Of a stretch of 64,000 bases of DNA, positions 47,517-63,132 are shown one piece after another (the stretch's first letter is position 1; every line of letters starts with the position of its first letter). The notes beneath the pieces were generated by a model. That model searched no databases, was not told the origin of the DNA, and worked only from the letters and a program-made list of their open reading frames with translations. The DNA lies in the NCBI GenBank assembly GCA_964634215.1, contig CAZWKR010000001.1:128603-192602 (forward strand), read 5' to 3'. Position numbers and translations under genes: made by a program. The DNA comes from an uncultured bacterium (GTDB lineage: Bacteria > Fidelibacterota > Marinisomatia > Marinisomatales > JAHJCW01).

Positions 47517-48782
47517 CTACACTAAAATCTGTTTTGTTTCCTTTTCGGCCAAACCAGGATCTTTTACGTAAAAGATCATTATTGCCAAACCAAGGCATAG
47601 CATTCCGGCAATTATCCAAAATAACTGCACAGTACCTAGAATTTCAGAAATAGATATTGCAGCGAAGATTGTAATTAGTATAAATGGGGCTAAAAAAGTA
47701 TCAACCAGAGCCATATATAATTTGCTATCATTCTTTCCGGCAAAACTGTAAACCATATTCATTGAAGCCGGCATAAATGAACCATAACCGAAACCCAAGA
47801 ATATGAATACAGCATAAACACCAAACATTGTTGTTGTGAATAATGCCGTAAGTACAGCAAAAAGATGTGCCGTGAAAGAAAATACTATTGCTGTTTTATG
47901 CCCGAAACGGTCACCGAGTTTACCAGACAAATAACTTGAAAAGCCATAAGCAGCTACATTCAGGATCGTAAAAATACCGGCAGTACTTATATCAAAGCCA
48001 AATTTATCCTGCATAAAAACCGCGTACAAACTAATAGCAGGGTATATTACCGTTAGGAAAGCACGGGCAGTCAAATAACGTCGGAAGTTATTGTGTGTTT
48101 TGATAATTCTTTTTGTTTCGGAAAAAAACTCAGCAACAGATTTATGCGGACGTTTTGCCACCGGGGATTTAATTCTGAGACCCAAGTATAAGATTGTAGC
48201 GATTATTATCATAATTAAATAAATAAAAAATCCATAACCAAAGTTTTTTGGGAAAGTAATTGAACTGCTAAATAATATTTTAACTAAAATACCACCTAAG
48301 AATCCACCAATACTATTGAAAGCAAAAGATACACCAAAAAATGCACCGCGCGAATCATCATTCACAGCATGACGTAAAAAATCTGTCCAAATTGGAATGA
48401 GGAATCCAATTGCCAATCCATATAAAATGAAACAAGAATAAAAATAAATCCAAGCAGTAGGTCCCGTTGGAGCGAAAAAGGCAAAGACGAAACCCATCAT
48501 AAAAACCGGAGGCCAAACCAATAGATGAACCCCAACTGCAACATTTTTAATATTATGTATATTTCGTCCTATTAATGCGGAAAGAAGTTGTGGTAGTGCC
48601 ATCAAAATGGCAAAAAGTCCTGCAACGGAGACTACAACTCCCGTTGGTGCTCCTAATTGCTTTAAAAACAGCGGTACAATTGCATAGATCGTATGGAATG
48701 CCATCCCAAAACCCCAGCAAAATTCATGAGCGCTATTTAGTGTTAAGTTATGACGCAGATCTCGTTTAGACAGTCTTTCCAT
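47517..48782 (-). CDS. MFS transporter
   Basis: 421 aa and about 12 TM helices with 6+6 organisation. Confidence 0.7.
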   Translation of the reverse strand: MERLSKRDLRHNLTLNSAHEFCWGFGMAFHTIYAIVPLFLKQLGAPTGVVVSVAGLFAILMALPQLLSALIGRNIHNIKNVAVGVHLLVWPPVFMMGFVFAFFAPTGPTAWIYFYSCFILYGLAIGFLIPIWTDFLRHAVNDDSRGAFFGVSFAFNSIGGFLGGILVKILFSSSITFPKNFGYGFFIYLIMIIIATILYLGLRIKSPVAKRPHKSVAEFFSETKRIIKTHNNFRRYLTARAFLTVIYPAISLYAVFMQDKFGFDISTAGIFTILNVAAYGFSSYLSGKLGDRFGHKTAIVFSFTAHLFAVLTALFTTTMFGVYAVFIFLGFGYGSFMPASMNMVYSFAGKNDSKLYMALVDTFLAPFILITIFAAISISEILGTVQLFWIIAGMLCLGLAIMIFYVKDPGLAEKETKQILV

Positions 48783-49677
48783 TTTGCTTCTTTTGATCTC
48801 TTGTTAGCAGGATTATAGAAATTATTAGTATGGCTCCACCGGCAAATTGTATAGGCGATAATACTCGTCCGCGGATAATCCAATCTATCGCAACAGCGGA
48901 AAGAGGCCAAAACAGTTCATATATTGAAGAATGCGATGCCTTAACATGTTTTAAGCCGTAATAATAGATGAACAAAGCAACAGAACCGGTAGTAAATACA
49001 ATTAACAGTATAATTTTCCATTGCAGGAATGTTATCACATTAATTTCTGAATAACCCCGTACTGCTAACAACACAACCATTGCAATTATTGCGGTAACAG
49101 ATAATCGCAATGCAGTAACAACCGGAAACGAAAGAGTTTTTAAGGTATGCTTTCCTAAAACAGTTGAGCTGCCCCAACAAAATGCTGCAAGTAACGCTAA
49201 AAGAGCAGCGATTATCATTTTATCATCGCCTCCCACAATTGGATTTAGTCCAAAAGTGACAAAATAGCCACCCACAAGAGCCATTATTGCTAACAGTAGA
49301 AATCTTTTCGTAATACGTTCTTTTAAAACTACCGCAGCAAGCGATATCGCAAATAGCGGTTGAAATTTTTGAAGTAAAACGACAACTGATAAATCGATAT
49401 AATTGATGTAACTAAGTGCTTTTGTATAGAAGAACAAACCAAGCAATCCGCCAAACACGCTTATCCAAAAAATTGACGACCAAGCCCTTTGCCCCATCGC
49501 AAAGATTTCTTTTTTACCTTTCAGCAAGAACGGTAGGAAAACGAGAGCACCGATTATATGCTCTATTGCAACGATCAAAAATGATGAAACGTTGTACAAC
49601 TCTTGACGAAGAAAACCGTCCAAGCTCCATAACAGTGCAGCAAAAATGATTGCAAAGATTGGCAAGTACTTTTTCAT
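48766..49677 (-). CDS. DMT superfamily (EamA-like) transporter
   Basis: 303 aa and about 10 TM helices in two EamA-like halves. 17-bp overlap with the downstream MFS gene. Confidence 0.72.
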   Translation of the reverse strand: MKKYLPIFAIIFAALLWSLDGFLRQELYNVSSFLIVAIEHIIGALVFLPFLLKGKKEIFAMGQRAWSSIFWISVFGGLLGLFFYTKALSYINYIDLSVVVLLQKFQPLFAISLAAVVLKERITKRFLLLAIMALVGGYFVTFGLNPIVGGDDKMIIAALLALLAAFCWGSSTVLGKHTLKTLSFPVVTALRLSVTAIIAMVVLLAVRGYSEINVITFLQWKIILLIVFTTGSVALFIYYYGLKHVKASHSSIYELFWPLSAVAIDWIIRGRVLSPIQFAGGAILIISIILLTRDQKKQNGKTV

Positions 49678-53294: not shown

Positions 53295-55340
53295 TTGAGT
53301 AAGGCAGTTTCAAATAGACTCGTTTGGTTTTGGGAAAAAGGTTATTTCTATCATTTCGCAGCGCTAATTCTATTTTTGTACTATGCCCTTAATGATAGAA
53401 TTGGAGTCATGGATTGGTTCAAAGACCCGGCATATTTACACTATATAACATCTGCCCTAAATGATTTTGATACTTTACCGTATTTTTGGTGGAATAAATT
53501 AGAACGTATTTCGTGGATACCTCCGGTAGCGGCAACTTCTTCGTTTATTTCAATACCTGAAACAACATTGTTTTCACCATTAACACCACTAATATATTTT
53601 TTGAAAGACATTGTTTTCCTTAAACTTTATCTATTCATACATGGCTTGGTTGGAATATTGGGTACAATAGCTTTGCGTAAGCGGTTGAATTGGAATGATA
53701 TTCAATTTCGAACTTTTTCTGCACTATTTCTATTTTCACCTATAATTTTTCAACATATTGCCATCGGCTATTTACCGTGGTACAATATATTTTTCTTCCC
53801 GTGGCTAATTTATTTTTTAACCTCCCAAAAGTCAATTAAAAGAATAATAGGTATTTCTGCCGTACTATCACTGGTATTATTGCAGGGTGGGGTTTATGTT
53901 TTTGTATGGTTTTTTATGTTGATAGGTTTATATACCTTGTTTCAGGGTATATTTGAGAAAAAATGGATTCGATTTGTTGAACTAGTCATGGTCTTAGGTT
54001 TGGTTTTTTTACTTGCTTACGTACGCATTTACGCTACTAGTTTAGTATATTCTGATTTTGATAGAGTGTGGTTTGAACCGGCTGGATATAACCCAATTAA
54101 TTTCTTAATCTACGCACTAATACCAACAGTAATGATTTCACCGTTTGATCTGTTTTTTTGGACAACCCTTGTTAAATTAGGAATTCCAGCTCATGATTCA
54201 GGGATTTTTTGGGGACTGGCAGTTTTTATGGTGGCAATTTTATTTATTAAATATAAAAATATATTTTACTCAAACCCTAATCCAAGAAGTCAACATTTAA
54301 ACTATAAAGCTGTGTTTTTCTCTGCTGGTATTATTTTTGCTTTCTCATTTTTTTACAATTGGTACTGGTTAATGAAGGGAATTAGTTCAATTATGACATT
54401 CCCGTTTTTTGAAAGCATAAAAAACTATGGACATCGACTGGCTATTCCCGCATATTTAGGCTTTTCTTTAGTCATGGCAAATTATGCCGATGAAATTTGG
54501 CAAGTAATGCACAAATTTACATTAGCTAAATCTTGGATTGGTGTAAAGAAATTTTTTAAAACCATTCTTGTGCTGGGCATATTTGGATTGGGCTCATTGT
54601 ATTTAGTATTAAAATTGTTTACTAAAATAATAATTGAAAAACTTTTAGAATGGATGACCGAAGCCTATAACGATTCAGGTAGTTTTTGGTTAAGAGAGAG
54701 GATGGAGGGTATAAATGAAAACAAGTTGGAGTTTTATTTAGAGCGCATTGAAAACATTTTTCACGTTTTTCAATATTGGTTATTTATGGTTTTAATGTTT
54801 TTCGCAATAATTTTTGTTTTTTTATATTTATTGAAGAGGTTTAAATATTTATTGGTTGGTGTTGTAATGCGTTTTCCTAACCTGAAATTTGAACTGCTGT
54901 TAGCATTACCACTATTCTTTGCAACGTCTAATTGGGTTGCTTTAGGGACTTCGGTTCCATTTAGCGAGCGTCCGCGACAAGAAGTGTTACCACCAAAAAT
55001 AACCATTATTAATCAGAAGGCTGATTCTGAAATTGAGACGATTGCAACTCCGCAATCATTAAAGATAATACAAGCTCAAGATGGAATACCAAATACCTAT
55101 ATATTCCCGGAATTACTTGCCAATGACCGCATATGCTTGTCGGTAGGTACAAATAATGCTACGCTTAAAGATAGTGCTGATATATTAATATTAGAAGCGA
55201 CGGATGACAGGACAATCGAAATTATTTATAAGACAAAAAAAATTAAGCAAGCACTTTGGCTCACAATTTTATCATGGATAGGTGTGATTGTGTTCTTTAT
55301 GGTGTGCAGTTTACGCTCTAGAAAACTTAGAGATGATTAA
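53295..55340 (+). CDS. Large polytopic membrane protein, GT-C-like glycosyltransferase candidate
   Basis: 681 aa with at least 14 hydrophobic helices across the N-terminal ~540 aa. An Asp-containing first loop (YALNDRIGVMDW), a soluble ~110-aa C-terminal segment and a final TM helix. TTG start 6 bp after the uvrA stop. The family is not recognised directly; the function is inferred from context. Confidence 0.5.
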   Translation: MSKAVSNRLVWFWEKGYFYHFAALILFLYYALNDRIGVMDWFKDPAYLHYITSALNDFDTLPYFWWNKLERISWIPPVAATSSFISIPETTLFSPLTPLIYFLKDIVFLKLYLFIHGLVGILGTIALRKRLNWNDIQFRTFSALFLFSPIIFQHIAIGYLPWYNIFFFPWLIYFLTSQKSIKRIIGISAVLSLVLLQGGVYVFVWFFMLIGLYTLFQGIFEKKWIRFVELVMVLGLVFLLAYVRIYATSLVYSDFDRVWFEPAGYNPINFLIYALIPTVMISPFDLFFWTTLVKLGIPAHDSGIFWGLAVFMVAILFIKYKNIFYSNPNPRSQHLNYKAVFFSAGIIFAFSFFYNWYWLMKGISSIMTFPFFESIKNYGHRLAIPAYLGFSLVMANYADEIWQVMHKFTLAKSWIGVKKFFKTILVLGIFGLGSLYLVLKLFTKIIIEKLLEWMTEAYNDSGSFWLRERMEGINENKLEFYLERIENIFHVFQYWLFMVLMFFAIIFVFLYLLKRFKYLLVGVVMRFPNLKFELLLALPLFFATSNWVALGTSVPFSERPRQEVLPPKITIINQKADSEIETIATPQSLKIIQAQDGIPNTYIFPELLANDRICLSVGTNNATLKDSADILILEATDDRTIEIIYKTKKIKQALWLTILSWIGVIVFFMVCSLRSRKLRDD

Positions 55341-55383: not shown

Positions 55384-56865
55384 ATGTCTATTAATAAATC
55401 TAAACAAATAGCACTTTTTGTCGATTTAGATGGCACATTAATTGCCACCGACACTTTATTAGAATCAATTGTTTTATTGTTAAAAACGTATCCACTAAAA
55501 ATATTTTTGTTAATATTGTGGGTCTTTAAAGGTAAGTCATATTTCAAAAGTAAGATTACTCAGTTTAATACAGTCCGGGCAGATTTACTCCCGTATAATG
55601 AAGAGGTATTGAATTATATAAAGGAAGAAAAAGGAAAAGGTCGCAAGATATATTTATTAACTGCGGCAAATCAAATGATTGCTGATGATGTTGCTGATTA
55701 TCTTGGCATATTTTCCGGTACTTTTGGTTCAACCGATAAGGTCAATCTATCAGGAGACCGAAAATTAAAAACAATTTTTCAAACAATTAATAATACACAA
55801 TTTGACTACATTGGTAACTCTAAAGCAGACATACCAATTTGGGAAAAATCCAACAAAATAATAATGGTAAATCCTAAGACGGGCATAAAAAACAAATTTT
55901 TAAAAAACGACAATGTTCAATTAATTAGAGTAAGTAGAAAAATAACAAAGACTAAGATTTTAGTTAAAGAAATACGTGTTTATCAGTGGGCGAAAAACTT
56001 ATTACTCTTTTTACCAATTATAATGGCACATCAGTTTAATAATGCAAATTTGTTGGCTGCAGCTTTGTGGGCATTTGTATCGTTCAGTTTTTGTGCTTCA
56101 GCAGTTTATATATTGAACGATTTATTGGACTTAGAAACTGACAGGAAGCATCCAACCAAGAAAAACAGACCACTGGCCTCAGGTTTAATGTCTGTAACAA
56201 CAGGTGTGTTGTTAATTTTTTTACTTTTATTTACAAGTGTTTTCATATCAGTTAAGATGCTTTCCACAGCATTTTTATTAATTTTAATAATTTATATGAT
56301 TTTTACTACCGCTTACTCGATTATACTTAAACAAATAATGCTGATTGATGTGATAGTATTGGGTGGATTATATACTTTACGAATTGCTGCTGGATCATTT
56401 GCTACTGGTGTAGAAGTATCTTCGTGGTTGTTAGTGTTTTCAATGTTTTTCTTCTTAAGCCTTGCTTTTATGAAAAGATATGCTGATTTAATTCTAATGA
56501 AACAGAACAACCAGAACGAAATAGCGGGAAGGGGTTACCATATTGACGATATAGATCTTGTACAAAAGTCTGGTATTACAAGTGGGTTTATGGCGATGTT
56601 AGTCTTGGCGTTATACATTAACAGTGATAATGTGATTGAGCTATACAAATCGCCGATGCTTATTTGGTTTATGATACCGGTACTATTTTATTGGTTAATG
56701 AGGATGTGGATGGTTACAAATCGAGGAGAGATGGCAGACGATCCCATTATTTACGCCATACGCGACAGGACAACATATGTTGTGATGACAATCATAGGTA
56801 TAATAATGATATTAGCGGCTACTTTAGATGGTTCTATTTTTAATAATCTTAATATAATTCAATGA
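55384..56865 (+). CDS. HAD-like phosphatase domain fused to UbiA-family polyprenyl-phosphate phosphoribosyltransferase-like domain
   Basis: 493 aa. N-terminal HAD motifs (FVDLDGTL, LLTAAN, GNSKAD). C-terminal 8-9 TM UbiA domain with NDLLDLETDRKHPTKKNRPLASG, resembling decaprenyl-phosphate phosphoribosyltransferase (Rv3806c-type HPTK..RP.A.G). Confidence 0.75.
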   Translation: MSINKSKQIALFVDLDGTLIATDTLLESIVLLLKTYPLKIFLLILWVFKGKSYFKSKITQFNTVRADLLPYNEEVLNYIKEEKGKGRKIYLLTAANQMIADDVADYLGIFSGTFGSTDKVNLSGDRKLKTIFQTINNTQFDYIGNSKADIPIWEKSNKIIMVNPKTGIKNKFLKNDNVQLIRVSRKITKTKILVKEIRVYQWAKNLLLFLPIIMAHQFNNANLLAAALWAFVSFSFCASAVYILNDLLDLETDRKHPTKKNRPLASGLMSVTTGVLLIFLLLFTSVFISVKMLSTAFLLILIIYMIFTTAYSIILKQIMLIDVIVLGGLYTLRIAAGSFATGVEVSSWLLVFSMFFFLSLAFMKRYADLILMKQNNQNEIAGRGYHIDDIDLVQKSGITSGFMAMLVLALYINSDNVIELYKSPMLIWFMIPVLFYWLMRMWMVTNRGEMADDPIIYAIRDRTTYVVMTIIGIIMILAATLDGSIFNNLNIIQ

Positions 56866-59047: not shown

Positions 59048-60076
59048 ATGATTAACGAATTACACATGACCGATCCTGTTCCAACCGATGATGATTTAAC
59101 GGTTGAAAAAACATTAAGACCGTCACATTTTGATGATTTTATTGGGCAAAGAGAGTTGGTTGAAAGCTTAATGGTCTATATCGAAGCTGCAAATAAAAGA
59201 GAGGGGGCGCTCGATCATGTATTATTATTTGGACCACCGGGACTCGGAAAAACGACCTTAGCTAACATTGTTGCCAAGGAATTAAACGTAAATGTTCGAC
59301 CCTCTTCCGGTCCGGTTTTGGATCGTGCAGGAGATTTAGCAGGGATGCTTACTAATCTAGAACACCGTGATGTGTTTTTTATCGATGAAATACATCGGTT
59401 AAATAGTATTGTCGAAGAATATTTATATTCAGCGATGGAAGATTTCCGTATCGATATTATGATTGACAAAGGACCGGGCGCTCGTAGTGTACAATTAAAT
59501 TTAGAACCGTTCACTCTTGTTGGAGCAACGACCCGCTTAGGAAATCTAACCTCACCATTACGTGATCGTTTTGGTGTAGTGTTAAGAGTTGATTATTATA
59601 GCGATGAAGATTTGTTTCATATTGTGCAACGCTCTGCAGAAATTTTGGGGATTGAAATTGACGATGATGGCACTTGGGAAATCGCACGTCGCTCACGCGG
59701 GACACCACGAATTGCTAATCGAATATTACGCCGTACAAGAGATTATGCAGAGGTTAAAGCCGGTGGTAAGATAAATAAAGATATAGCAAAAAAGTCACTT
59801 ACAACACTTGGAATCGACAAAACGGGACTGGATGAAATGGACAGACGTATATTAACTACTTTAATTGATAAGTTTGATGGCGGACCCGTGGGCATAGGTT
59901 CGTTAGCGGTCGCCATCAGTGAGGATTCAACAACTATCGAAGATGTATATGAACCGTTTTTAATAAAAGAAGGTTTTCTCCAACGGACATCTAGGGGGCG
60001 AATAGCTCAGGAAAAAGCATTTAAATTGTTAGGAAAAAAACAAAAACTACTACAACGAGGTTTGTTTAATGATTGA
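59048..60076 (+). CDS. ruvB: Holliday junction branch migration DNA helicase RuvB
   Basis: 342 aa. [35 protein letters not shown]. Confidence 0.95.
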
Positions 60077-61121
60077 AAAAAAGAAAAAATATAAATTAGC
60101 AGATTTTAATTATTCACTACCGAATAAATTTATCGCAGAATATCCTGCGACACGCCGTGACCAGTCTAAATTATTAGTGCTTCATCGTGATACCGGGGAA
60201 ATAGAGCATAAAAAATTCCATGAAGTAACCGATTATATGCGGAAAAATGATCTACTACTGTTAAATAATACAAAAGTATTTCCAGCACGTTTATTCGCTA
60301 CGAAAGATAGAACAGAAGCTAAAGTGGAAGTGTTTTTACTGCGTGAATTAAATGAGGACTTGTGGGAAGTTATGGTTCGCCCTGCCCGCAAAGTTCGCAT
60401 TGGTAATAAATTGGAATTGGCGCCAAATGTATTTTGTGATGTAATCGACAATACTGTGTCCGGCGGACGTGTAGTCAGATTTGAGCACGAAGGTGATGAT
60501 ATATATTCTATAATTGAGCGAATCGGTATTTCACCGTTGCCTCCTTATATAAAACGTGAGTCTGAGAAAAAAGACAAAGTTCGCTATCAAACAGTTTATG
60601 CTAATAGAAGGGGAGCCGTGGCAGCTCCGACGGCAGGATTGCATTTTACTCAGGGATTATTGGATAAAATTGACCGCAAGGGCGTAAAAATGGAGAAACT
60701 AACCCTACATATTGGATTAGGAACATTTCGTCCGGTGCAAGTTGAAGACTTAAACCGCCATCAGATGGATTCAGAATATTTTGAAGTATCACCGGAAGCA
60801 GCAATGGCAATAAATACAACGCGCAAGAAACGCCGTAAAGTAATCGGAGTAGGTACCTCAACTGTGCGTGCGATCGAAACAGTAGCAGTGTCAGGATTTC
60901 AAGTAAGTCCAAAGCGTGGGTGGACGGATAAGTTTATTTATCCACCATATAATTTTAAAATGATTGATGCTCTGGTCACCAACTTTCATCAGCCTCAGAG
61001 TACATTATTAATGATGGTGAGCGCATTTGCTGGTCGAGATCTAATATTAAAAGCCTATCAAGAAGCCAAGAAAAATGACTATCGCTTTTTAAGTTATGGT
61101 GACGCGATGTTAATTCTATAG
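60069..61121 (+). CDS. queA: S-adenosylmethionine:tRNA ribosyltransferase-isomerase
   Basis: 350 aa. LADFNYSLP...IA.YP...[25 protein letters not shown]. Confidence 0.93.
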
Positions 61122-61123
61122 GA

Positions 61124-61816
61124 ATGAATAAAGAATATCAAATTGGTGCTATTATTGTTGCAGCAGGTTCCGGGTTAAGGTTTGGCGAAAGAAAACAGTT
61201 CAAGAAACTAGGAATAAAACCATTATATTTATATTCTTTGCAAAAATTTATTGATTGTAATTCAGTTAGTGAAGTTGTTTTGGTAGTTCCGGGGGATTTG
61301 CAAAGCACAATTTCAAATGAAGTATCTACGTTAAGTTTTCAAATAAATGTAGTCGAGGGTGGAAAACTAAGGCAAGATTCTGTTTTGGCAGGAATGGAAG
61401 GACTGTCGGATAATTGTGATATAGTTTGCGTACATGATGCAGCTAGACCATTTGTTACCATTGATCTAATTCAAAAAGCAATTAACGCCTGTGAAAACAA
61501 TGATGGTGCTGTTGTTGCAATACCATCACACGATACTGTAAAAGAGGTTATTGCAAACAATTATCGCATTAAAAGAACAATTCCACGTGAAACAATTTGG
61601 CTAGCCCAAACACCACAAACATTTCATCGAAGTCAATTGAAGAAAGCGTTGCTTTATGCCAGAGATAGTGAAATCCAGGTTACAGATGAAGCAACATTGC
61701 TGGAATCGTTGGAATACTCAATTGTTGTTGTTGAGGGTAAAGAGGATAATTTCAAGATTACAACATCAAAGGATTGGAAGCTTGCAGAATTAATATTGGA
61801 GAGAAATAATGATTAG
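61124..61816 (+). CDS. ispD: 2-C-methyl-D-erythritol 4-phosphate cytidylyltransferase
   Basis: 230 aa. IIVAAGSGLRFG..KQF, VHDAARPF, QTPQTF. Confidence 0.9.
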   Translation: MNKEYQIGAIIVAAGSGLRFGERKQFKKLGIKPLYLYSLQKFIDCNSVSEVVLVVPGDLQSTISNEVSTLSFQINVVEGGKLRQDSVLAGMEGLSDNCDIVCVHDAARPFVTIDLIQKAINACENNDGAVVAIPSHDTVKEVIANNYRIKRTIPRETIWLAQTPQTFHRSQLKKALLYARDSEIQVTDEATLLESLEYSIVVVEGKEDNFKITTSKDWKLAELILERNND

Positions 61817-62282
61817 AACGGGAATCGGCTATGATGTGCATCAACTAGCTGAAGATAGAAAATTAATTATTGCCGGTATTGCAATTCCAGGTGAAAAAGG
61901 TTCTGTCGGCCATTCCGATGGAGACGCCCTTTCACATGCCATTATTGATGCCATATTAGGTGCAGCAAGCCTGGGTGACCTTGGCGATTATTTTCCAAGT
62001 GAGGATGATAAATGGAAAGACGCTAATAGTTTAGATCTGTTATCAGAATCCATTAAAAAAGTTATATCTGAAGGATATACAATTAATAATGTTGATAGTG
62101 TTGTTATCATTCAAGAACCTAAACTAAAGAAATATATTTTCCAAATACGTGAAAATTTAGCTAGGACTATCGGAGTTCCAATAGATTACATATCGGTAAA
62201 GGCGACAACAGTTGACCACTTGGGCGCCATTGGTGCTGGTGAAGGTTGGGCCTCTCAAGCAATCGCAACAATCTCCAAATAA
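61809..62282 (+). CDS. ispF: 2-C-methyl-D-erythritol 2,4-cyclodiphosphate synthase
   Basis: 157 aa. IGYDVH, GHSDGDAL.HAI.DA.LGA. 8-bp overlap with ispD. Confidence 0.93.
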   Translation: MIRTGIGYDVHQLAEDRKLIIAGIAIPGEKGSVGHSDGDALSHAIIDAILGAASLGDLGDYFPSEDDKWKDANSLDLLSESIKKVISEGYTINNVDSVVIIQEPKLKKYIFQIRENLARTIGVPIDYISVKATTVDHLGAIGAGEGWASQAIATISK

Positions 62283-62286
62283 CCAT

Positions 62287-63132
62287 ATGGATTCCATTGA
62301 TCTAAAAGCTCATGCCAAAGTCAATATTGGTTTACAAGTTAAAGATCAGCGTGAAGATGGGCTTCACAATATACATACCGTATTTCAAGAACTTGAACTG
62401 CATGATGAAATATTGCTTGAGAAACAACCAAGTGATTGGAACATTAAAATAAACGACTCAACAATCCCAACGGATGAAAGCAATACTTGTATTCAAGCTT
62501 ACTTGTCAATAAAAAAACAATTCCCTGAAATTGATGGAATTTCCATTGTATTAAAAAAAACGGTACCGTCCGGTGCCGGATTAGGCGGTGGTTCTAGTGA
62601 TGCTGCAACGGCATTAAGGGGATTGAGGCAACTGTATAACCTACCGCTGGATAACAGTCAACTTTCAGATATAGCTGTAAGTATAGGAGCAGATGTTTCG
62701 TTCTTCATTGCCGGTGGCACTCAAATAGGAAATGGTATCGGTGATATTCTTTCACCGGTAAGTAATTCTATTAAAGGATTTTATTTATTAATTATTCCCG
62801 ATATTTTTATTAGCACAGCGTGGGCATATAATGCATTGAAAAAAGACTTGAAGGATGACATAGACAGACCTAACTTTGCGCACTTTTTAGAGAGTAATAA
62901 TATCTCTAATGTGATATTTGATAATGATTTTGAACGAATTGTGATTCCAACATATCCAAAAATTGGTGATATTAAGAAAGGTCTTTTGGAGGCCGGTGCA
63001 AGTTATGCCAGTTTGTCGGGAAGTGGCTCGACTGTGTTTGGTATATTTGACAAGGAAGCTAAAGCAAAACAAGCTGAGTCTCATTTCCAAAAACAGTATC
63101 AAACCTTCCTTACCAGACCAACCAATATTTAA
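62287..63132 (+). CDS. ispE: 4-diphosphocytidyl-2-C-methyl-D-erythritol kinase
   Basis: AHAKVNIGLQV, GHMP-kinase motif PSGAGLGGGSSDAA. Start set to the ATG at 62287, since the track start at 62212 lies inside ispF. Confidence 0.9.
   Translation: MDSIDLKAHAKVNIGLQVKDQREDGLHNIHTVFQELELHDEILLEKQPSDWNIKINDSTIPTDESNTCIQAYLSIKKQFPEIDGISIVLKKTVPSGAGLGGGSSDAATALRGLRQLYNLPLDNSQLSDIAVSIGADVSFFIAGGTQIGNGIGDILSPVSNSIKGFYLLIIPDIFISTAWAYNALKKDLKDDIDRPNFAHFLESNNISNVIFDNDFERIVIPTYPKIGDIKKGLLEAGASYASLSGSGSTVFGIFDKEAKAKQAESHFQKQYQTFLTRPTNI

Follow-up and report, generated by a model that had tools for sequence, protein, structure and literature searches.

A probable bifunctional polyprenyl-phosphoribofuranose synthase of the ORF15 type in a proposed arabinofuranose-donor pathway of an uncultured bacterium

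The window, a stretch of 64,000 nucleotides corresponding to contig C1:128603-192602 of an uncultured Marinisomatales genome (2.34 Mb, 34% GC, 93% complete), carries between uvrA and ruvB a cassette of four genes, which encode a GT-C protein, a fusion of a HAD-like phosphatase domain to a UbiA-type transferase, and homologues of DprE1 and DprE2 (Table 1). This locus raises the question of whether the fused HAD domain performs the 5′-dephosphorylation that is assigned to Rv3807c in mycobacteria, and whether such a fusion is a new candidate replacement for that enzyme, as was proposed in a preliminary description of the sequence. The analysis presented here indicates with high confidence that the fusion gene encodes a bifunctional polyprenyl-phosphoribofuranose synthase of the C. 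youngae ORF15 type, acting in a proposed pathway to an arabinofuranose (Araf) donor. The proposed dephosphorylating role is supported by analogy with ORF15, a protein of the same architecture, while the function of such a fusion had already been published for ORF15 and is not new (Kelly et al., 2024; PMC11127046).

The fused gene and its family

The fusion gene is a single open frame starting at an ATG, with zero internal stops, and its domains, its motifs and the order of the surrounding genes are established directly. The HAD domain fused to UbiA, with DLDGTL, the threonine of LLTAAN and GNSKAD, was recovered at the positions given in the preliminary description. A frameshift or a misjoined reading frame as the source of the fusion was ruled out by the open frame together with full-length matches in 81 plasmid records, each covering at least 80% of the query, and in 78 genome loci. 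The UbiA part is matched by Pfam at residues 216-445 (E 1.9e-21) and the HAD part at residues 12-151 (E 1.9e-5), where the score of 25.6 bits lies just below the 27-bit cut-off. Over residues 5-479, aligned to model positions 8-480, the protein scores 609.9 bits against a cut-off of 351 on NCBIfam NF006088 (PRK08238), an equivalog of which it is a full-length member above the curated cut-off; no difference was found from this family, designated “UbiA family prenyltransferase”, a name that omits the phosphatase. Among solved structures, the best sequence match of the UbiA part is M. tuberculosis Rv3806c (8j8j, E 5e-28).

Table 1. Features of the cassette in the window (all on the forward strand; conservation counted in 110 aligned homologues of the fusion protein)
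Feature	Coordinates	Strand	Remarks
681-aa membrane protein, GT-C fold	53295..55340	+	Predicted from model and Foldseek; upstream of the fusion gene
HAD-UbiA fusion gene, PRP-PPPRS type (NCBIfam NF006088/PRK08238)	55384..56865	+	493 aa
N-terminal HAD phosphatase domain, approximately residues 9-181	55408..55926	+	Pfam HAD, secondary structure of the model, Foldseek SerB/HAD matches
HAD motif I, DLDGTL, residues 14-19 (D14, D16)	55423..55440	+	D14 in 109/110, D16 in 108/110
HAD motif II, T93, within LLTAAN (91-96)	55660..55662	+	T or S in 110/110
HAD motif III, K127	55762..55764	+	Invariant in 110/110; absent from the preliminary description
HAD motif IV, GNSKAD, residues 144-149 (N145, D149)	55813..55830	+	D149 in 108/110
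UbiA-fold polyprenyl-phosphate phosphoribosyltransferase domain, residues 189-480	55948..56823	+	Nine predicted membrane helices
UbiA Asp-rich motif, N245 D246 x x D249 x x x D253	56116..56142	+	All four invariant, 110/110
Loop IV motif, KRYAD (R365, D368)	56473..56487	+	K364 and R365 invariant
DprE1-like FAD oxidoreductase, 441 aa	56862..58187	+	4-nt overlap with the fusion gene
DprE2-like short-chain reductase, 246 aa	58191..58931	+	NF005489/PRK07102, 281 bits, above the cut-off of 267

A protein search that scored 8000 candidates returned 6511 matches; of the best 120, most contain both Pfam domains. A genome scan confirmed at least 591 stretches. The domain architecture of homologues, which the preliminary description had recommended checking, was uniform among the best 80 of these at least 591 stretches: all 78 new loci match both domains and are thus fused, although the ranking of this sample by full-length similarity to the query means that it provides no measure of the frequency of unfused forms. 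The 78 loci are distributed among Pseudomonadota, Acidobacteriota, Bacteroidota, Myxococcota, Bdellovibrionota, Nitrospirota and Planctomycetota. Within 6 kb of these fused loci from the best 80, DprE1 was found in 53 cases and DprE2 in 44, and a low-sensitivity tblastn search with the three PAP2 domains of the source genome detected no PAP2 gene beside any of the 78. Named homologues of both the fusion protein and the upstream GT-C protein belong mostly to Candidatus Neomarinimicrobiota, as do named sequences closely related to the nearby queA, and among 40 relatives examined, matches above the family cut-off were found in the same genus only. The fusion is a curated family that is common in bacteria and has thousands of members, of which the window protein is an ordinary new one.

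Catalytic residues, predicted topology and proposed pathway

The preliminary description regarded degenerate HAD motifs in orthologues as evidence that would count against its proposal; instead, the full catalytic set (D14, D16, T93, K127, position 145 and D149) is retained in 104 of the 110 homologues. Motif IV has the form GNxxxD here, as opposed to GDxxxD, position 145 being occupied by D in 58 homologues and by N in 50. In the transferase domain, position 368 is E in 63 homologues and D, as in the window protein, in 47.

An AlphaFold2 model of the fusion protein (mean pLDDT 93, pTM 0.89) predicts a HAD domain with a Rossmannoid core and a helical cap (residues 24-61) containing a pair of hydrophobic helices, then a linker and nine membrane helices (199-214, 221-248, 271-292, 295-313, 321-341, 347-374, 387-412, 424-446 and 462-480). 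The top Foldseek match is Rv3806c (8j8j, TM-score 0.82 by target), followed by other UbiA enzymes, and the HAD part matches SerB-like HAD folds (3fvv, 4eze and 1l7p). Residues 29-47 (hydropathy 2.05) were considered as a membrane-spanning helix and rejected, because such a helix would leave motif I and motifs II-IV on opposite sides of the membrane; the model places this segment in the HAD cap. In the model, the HAD domain stands ahead of helix 1, the Asp loop (245-253) comes after helix 2, and KRYAD lies at the end of helix 6; by the parity of the helices between them, all three are predicted to be on one face. The HAD domain is accordingly predicted to share the side of the transferase active site, whereas the preliminary description had named a position on the opposite side as contrary to its proposal.

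The biochemistry of this architecture is known from C. youngae O1, for which Kelly et al. (2024, PNAS; PMC11127046) report that ORF15 (AWU66546.1) is a polyprenyl phosphoribofuranose synthase, termed PRP-PPPRS, composed of an N-terminal HAD phosphoribose phosphatase and a nine-helix UbiA domain that is 31% identical to Rv3806c. In their account, ORF15 membranes supplied with PRPP and farnesyl-P produced farnesylP-Ribf (Ribf, ribofuranose), which was confirmed by MS and NMR, and the D18A mutant yielded mainly the Ribf-5-P product but was leaky, giving a little dephosphorylated product in vitro and in vivo and allowing some Ribf addition (PMC11127046). The assay suggested in the preliminary description, in which membranes are supplied with PRPP and polyprenyl phosphate and an Asp-to-Ala mutant is compared, corresponds to the one already published on ORF15 with farnesyl-P (PMC11127046). 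The same authors describe Rv3807c, in an explicit contrast, as unrelated to HAD-family enzymes, state that a separate phosphatase is required by the mycobacterial and P. aeruginosa transferases, note that split and C-terminal phosphatase arrangements also exist, and describe Araf-adding systems that contain homologues of DprE1/E2 (PMC11127046).

By analogy with ORF15, the UbiA domain of the window protein would load a lipid carrier with ribose phosphate; the HAD domain, facing the same side, would then cleave the 5′-phosphate via an Asp-phosphate intermediate to give polyprenyl-P-Ribf. The neighboring DprE1 and DprE2 homologues would then presumably invert C2 to form polyprenyl-P-Araf, which a flippase would move across the membrane for the upstream GT-C protein to add Araf to a surface glycan or protein. 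The product of the cassette is most likely polyprenyl-P-arabinofuranose, with a presumed carrier lipid and a presumed acceptor. The DprE1-like protein matches DprE1 in the PDB over residues 37-435 (E 2.4e-75); on the actinobacterial models it scores 377 bits (NF053785, cut-off 500), and the DprE2-like protein scores 166 bits (NF053786 DprE2, cut-off 250), both below the cut-offs. After the cassette, ruvB, queA, ispD, ispF and ispE occupy window positions 59048-63132, followed in relatives by a gene for PRPP synthetase; the genes of this region supply isoprenoid and PRPP precursors, but they keep the same order also at loci with a reduced cassette.

The 681-aa GT-C protein has no Pfam or NCBIfam match, and 7 of 55 homologues match PF11847 (GT-C_AftD). 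Its model (pLDDT 89) finds ArnT as the best Foldseek match (E 3.7e-5), followed by PglB, AglB, ALG9 and AftD, and on this predicted fold it is likely to be a transferase that uses a lipid-linked pentose and may represent an unclassified GT-C family. It has 58 homologues, and those of congeners are just 40-50% identical although the flanking genes are approximately 90% identical; this divergence between conserved flanks suggests changing acceptor specificity. The small flippase gene expected in or near a three-component pentofuranose glycosylation cluster is of the GtrA or SMR type, or of the kind that Kelly et al. call MATE (PMC11127046); a search of the 93%-complete genome for a flippase of the GtrA (PF04138) or SMR (PF00893) type gave no match. 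An EamA gene (48766-49677) and an MFS gene (47517-48782) lie nearby, both of which also flank loci that have no GT-C gene.

Variation of the cassette and the phosphatase step

The content of the cassette at the uvrA-ruvB site varies among congeners. The cassettes of G001 and G002 resemble that of the window, whereas in G005 the fusion gene stands alone (L035:8940-10379), as it does at L121:5001-6443, with neither GT-C nor DprE genes adjoining. G003, G004 and G007 carry a GT-C gene and a transferase of 303-307 aa that has no HAD domain (L030:8167-9090, L031:8900-9823 and L032:8415-9326, respectively), and DprE genes are absent from the cassette. In these three genomes, which are 78-86% complete, no stand-alone copy of the HAD domain was found with the window domain as the query, nor was DprE1 found; their product could be Ribf or Ribf-5-P. 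In the closer relatives P0066 and P0111 (74% and 69% identical), the genes ahead of ruvB are, in order, GT-C, HAD-less transferase, and full-length DprE1 and DprE2; a gap of 26 nt or an overlap takes the place of the HAD-coding region, and the cluster contains no phosphatase gene. The HAD-less transferase of P0066 (L119:2081-2992 and L120:1682-2593) has an identical junction in two independent assemblies.

In a tree with a fused outgroup, the HAD-less copies are nested among the fused ones, and their grouping in a single clade, with a single origin, is rejected (p-AU 9.6e-12); the simplest explanation is two or more losses of the HAD domain, the one in G003, G004 and G007 being separate from that in P0066 and P0111. 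The arrangement in P0066 and P0111 indicates that DprE1/E2 can be maintained in a cassette that encodes no phosphatase, and that the HAD domain is not obligatory for the cassette. Such HAD-less cassettes fit both the leaky D18A mutant of ORF15 as described by Kelly et al. (PMC11127046) and the finding that Rv3807c is non-essential in knockdowns (PMC5964476).

Several further rearrangements were observed at these loci. G001 has two divergent GT-C copies in a row (L033:4636-9504) with a broken transferase fragment between them, the 3′ end of which resembles the end of uvrA, and this region looks like a scar of cassette replacement or duplication. The GT-C gene of G004 is split into ORFs of 408 and 172 aa (L031:6854-8629), either as a pseudogene or through an assembly frameshift. 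In G002, ispD and ispF are separated by an inserted TMEM260/PMT-like GT-C gene (L034:16690-18138), and at L122:1990-2913 the cassette has an insertion upstream of its GT-C gene, which encodes an FkbM-type methyltransferase (PF05050). G007 additionally contains a second, distant HAD-less UbiA transferase, whose neighbors are a diacylglycerol-kinase-like gene and a small HAD gene that stands alone (L036:538-2829); their contig measures 3.4 kb and may have been binned with this genome as a contaminant.

The preliminary description had argued that the cluster lacks a PAP2 phosphatase and that the fusion fills the resulting gap in the pathway. No PAP2 gene is present in the cluster, nor elsewhere on contig C1, but three are located on C4, C6 and C13, and congeners have two to five. 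The absence of PAP2 from the cluster does not alone show that the fusion fills a gap, and the gap argument is weakened by these PAP2 genes elsewhere in the genome, by the dispensability of Rv3807c (PMC5964476), by the leakiness reported for ORF15 D18A (PMC11127046) and by the cassettes of close relatives that contain DprE1/E2 yet neither HAD nor PAP2.

These observations bear on several other readings of the fused protein. Some automatic annotations would make it a prenyltransferase of quinone synthesis joined to a phosphoserine phosphatase, for example in JGI names on homologues such as [quoted passage not shown], to which the SerB structures among the Foldseek matches would correspond; this is scarcely credible, given 26 bits on the NCBIfam model of 4-hydroxybenzoate octaprenyltransferase against 147-153 bits on two phosphoribosyltransferase models, the separate UbiA-family genes in the genome and the operon shared with DprE1/E2 and the GT-C gene. 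For a polyprenyl-phosphoribofuranose synthase, the preferred reading, it may still be asked how much the fused phosphatase contributes. Housekeeping PAP2 enzymes might perform most of the 5′-dephosphorylation, leaving a largely redundant HAD domain that is heading to loss, and this possibility draws on the PAP2 genes of the genome and its congeners, on close relatives whose cassettes retain intact DprE1/E2 but no HAD domain, on the Ribf addition that ORF15 D18A is reported to support in vivo (PMC11127046) and on the non-essential Rv3807c (PMC5964476). It is nevertheless unlikely, as the catalytic residues are all intact here and conserved across the 110 homologues, and the fusion is kept in all 78 further loci from the best 80, a sample selected for full-length similarity. 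The second step probably proceeds mainly, though not solely, through the fused phosphatase, for which host phosphatases are likely to be able to substitute.

As the preliminary description proposed, the fusion might also act by channelling, with the 5′-phosphorylated lipid passing from the UbiA site to the HAD site and never being released into the membrane pool. A covalent link, a shared membrane face and a confident two-domain model would accommodate such transfer, and the hydrophobic cap helices (24-48) could sit at the membrane; however, conservation of the linker is low (mean column identity 0.28 in the 110-homologue alignment, versus 0.57 and 0.62 for the two domains), the HAD domain was lost repeatedly in close relatives, split and C-terminal arrangements are reported (PMC11127046), and with a membrane-anchored intermediate proximity alone would explain a benefit, all of which make channelling distinctly unlikely. 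A further reading concerns the relatives and the Marinimicrobia uvrA-ruvB cassette more than the window gene: the HAD domain would decide the product, neutral Araf or Ribf being made where it is present and, where it is absent, a 5-phosphorylated pentose being placed on a surface glycan by a GT-C protein of an as yet unclassified family, possibly with no recognizable flippase. We regard this as very improbable. That otherwise intact cassettes have lost the HAD domain more than once suggests that other enzymes easily cover the 5′-phosphatase step, in keeping with the dispensability of Rv3807c (PMC5964476).

Comparison with known systems

With the fusion and its function already published, the window gene alone matters little; the cassette adds an uncultured marine lineage to the likely producers of lipid-linked arabinofuranose, and in this lineage an arabinosylated surface structure is predicted. 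The closest counterpart is C. youngae ORF15, which likewise combines an N-terminal HAD phosphatase and a nine-helix UbiA domain in one polypeptide (PMC11127046). The spacing of N247, D248, D251 and D255 in ORF15 equals that of the window Asp-rich motif, and R366/E369 corresponds to R365/D368 in an R-x-x-[ED] motif at nearly equal positions (PMC11127046); as this mapping uses motif spacing only, D18 of ORF15 could be either D14 or D16. The ORF15 cluster also has a GT-C gene, the window protein being placed by fold in GT-C at large and not specifically in GT136. It includes, in addition, a small flippase gene, whereas GtrA and SMR were not found in the window genome (PMC11127046). According to the same report, the ORF15 locus leads to Ribf (O1) or, via a single SDR epimerase, to Xylf (O2), while DprE1/E2 in the window point to Araf. 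Rhizobium CCGE531 plasmid CP032687, listed by Kelly et al. as a carrier of an ORF15 system (PMC11127046), contains a single match to the fusion protein (residues 7-477, 36%), adjoining SMR transporter and epimerase genes.

M. tuberculosis shares the homologous transferase domain of Rv3806c, the DPPR synthase (PDB 8j8j and 8j8k; 25% identity), and DprE1/E2-like genes. Rv3806c has no HAD domain, and the mycobacterial phosphatase Rv3807c is separate and, as described by Kelly et al., unrelated to HAD enzymes (PMC11127046); the fusion protein gives no PAP2 hit, so that its HAD domain is an analogue of the Rv3807c-like PAP2 phosphatases and not a member of that group. Outside mycobacteria, the three-component Araf systems (PMC11127046, Fig. 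S11/S12) and the arabinosylation of type IV pilin in Pseudomonas also combine a PPPRS, DprE1/E2 and a GT-C protein. In the reported Pseudomonas systems, the phosphatase is a separate protein in P. aeruginosa and a C-terminal PRP domain in P. syringae B728a, whereas the window protein has its HAD domain at the N-terminus.
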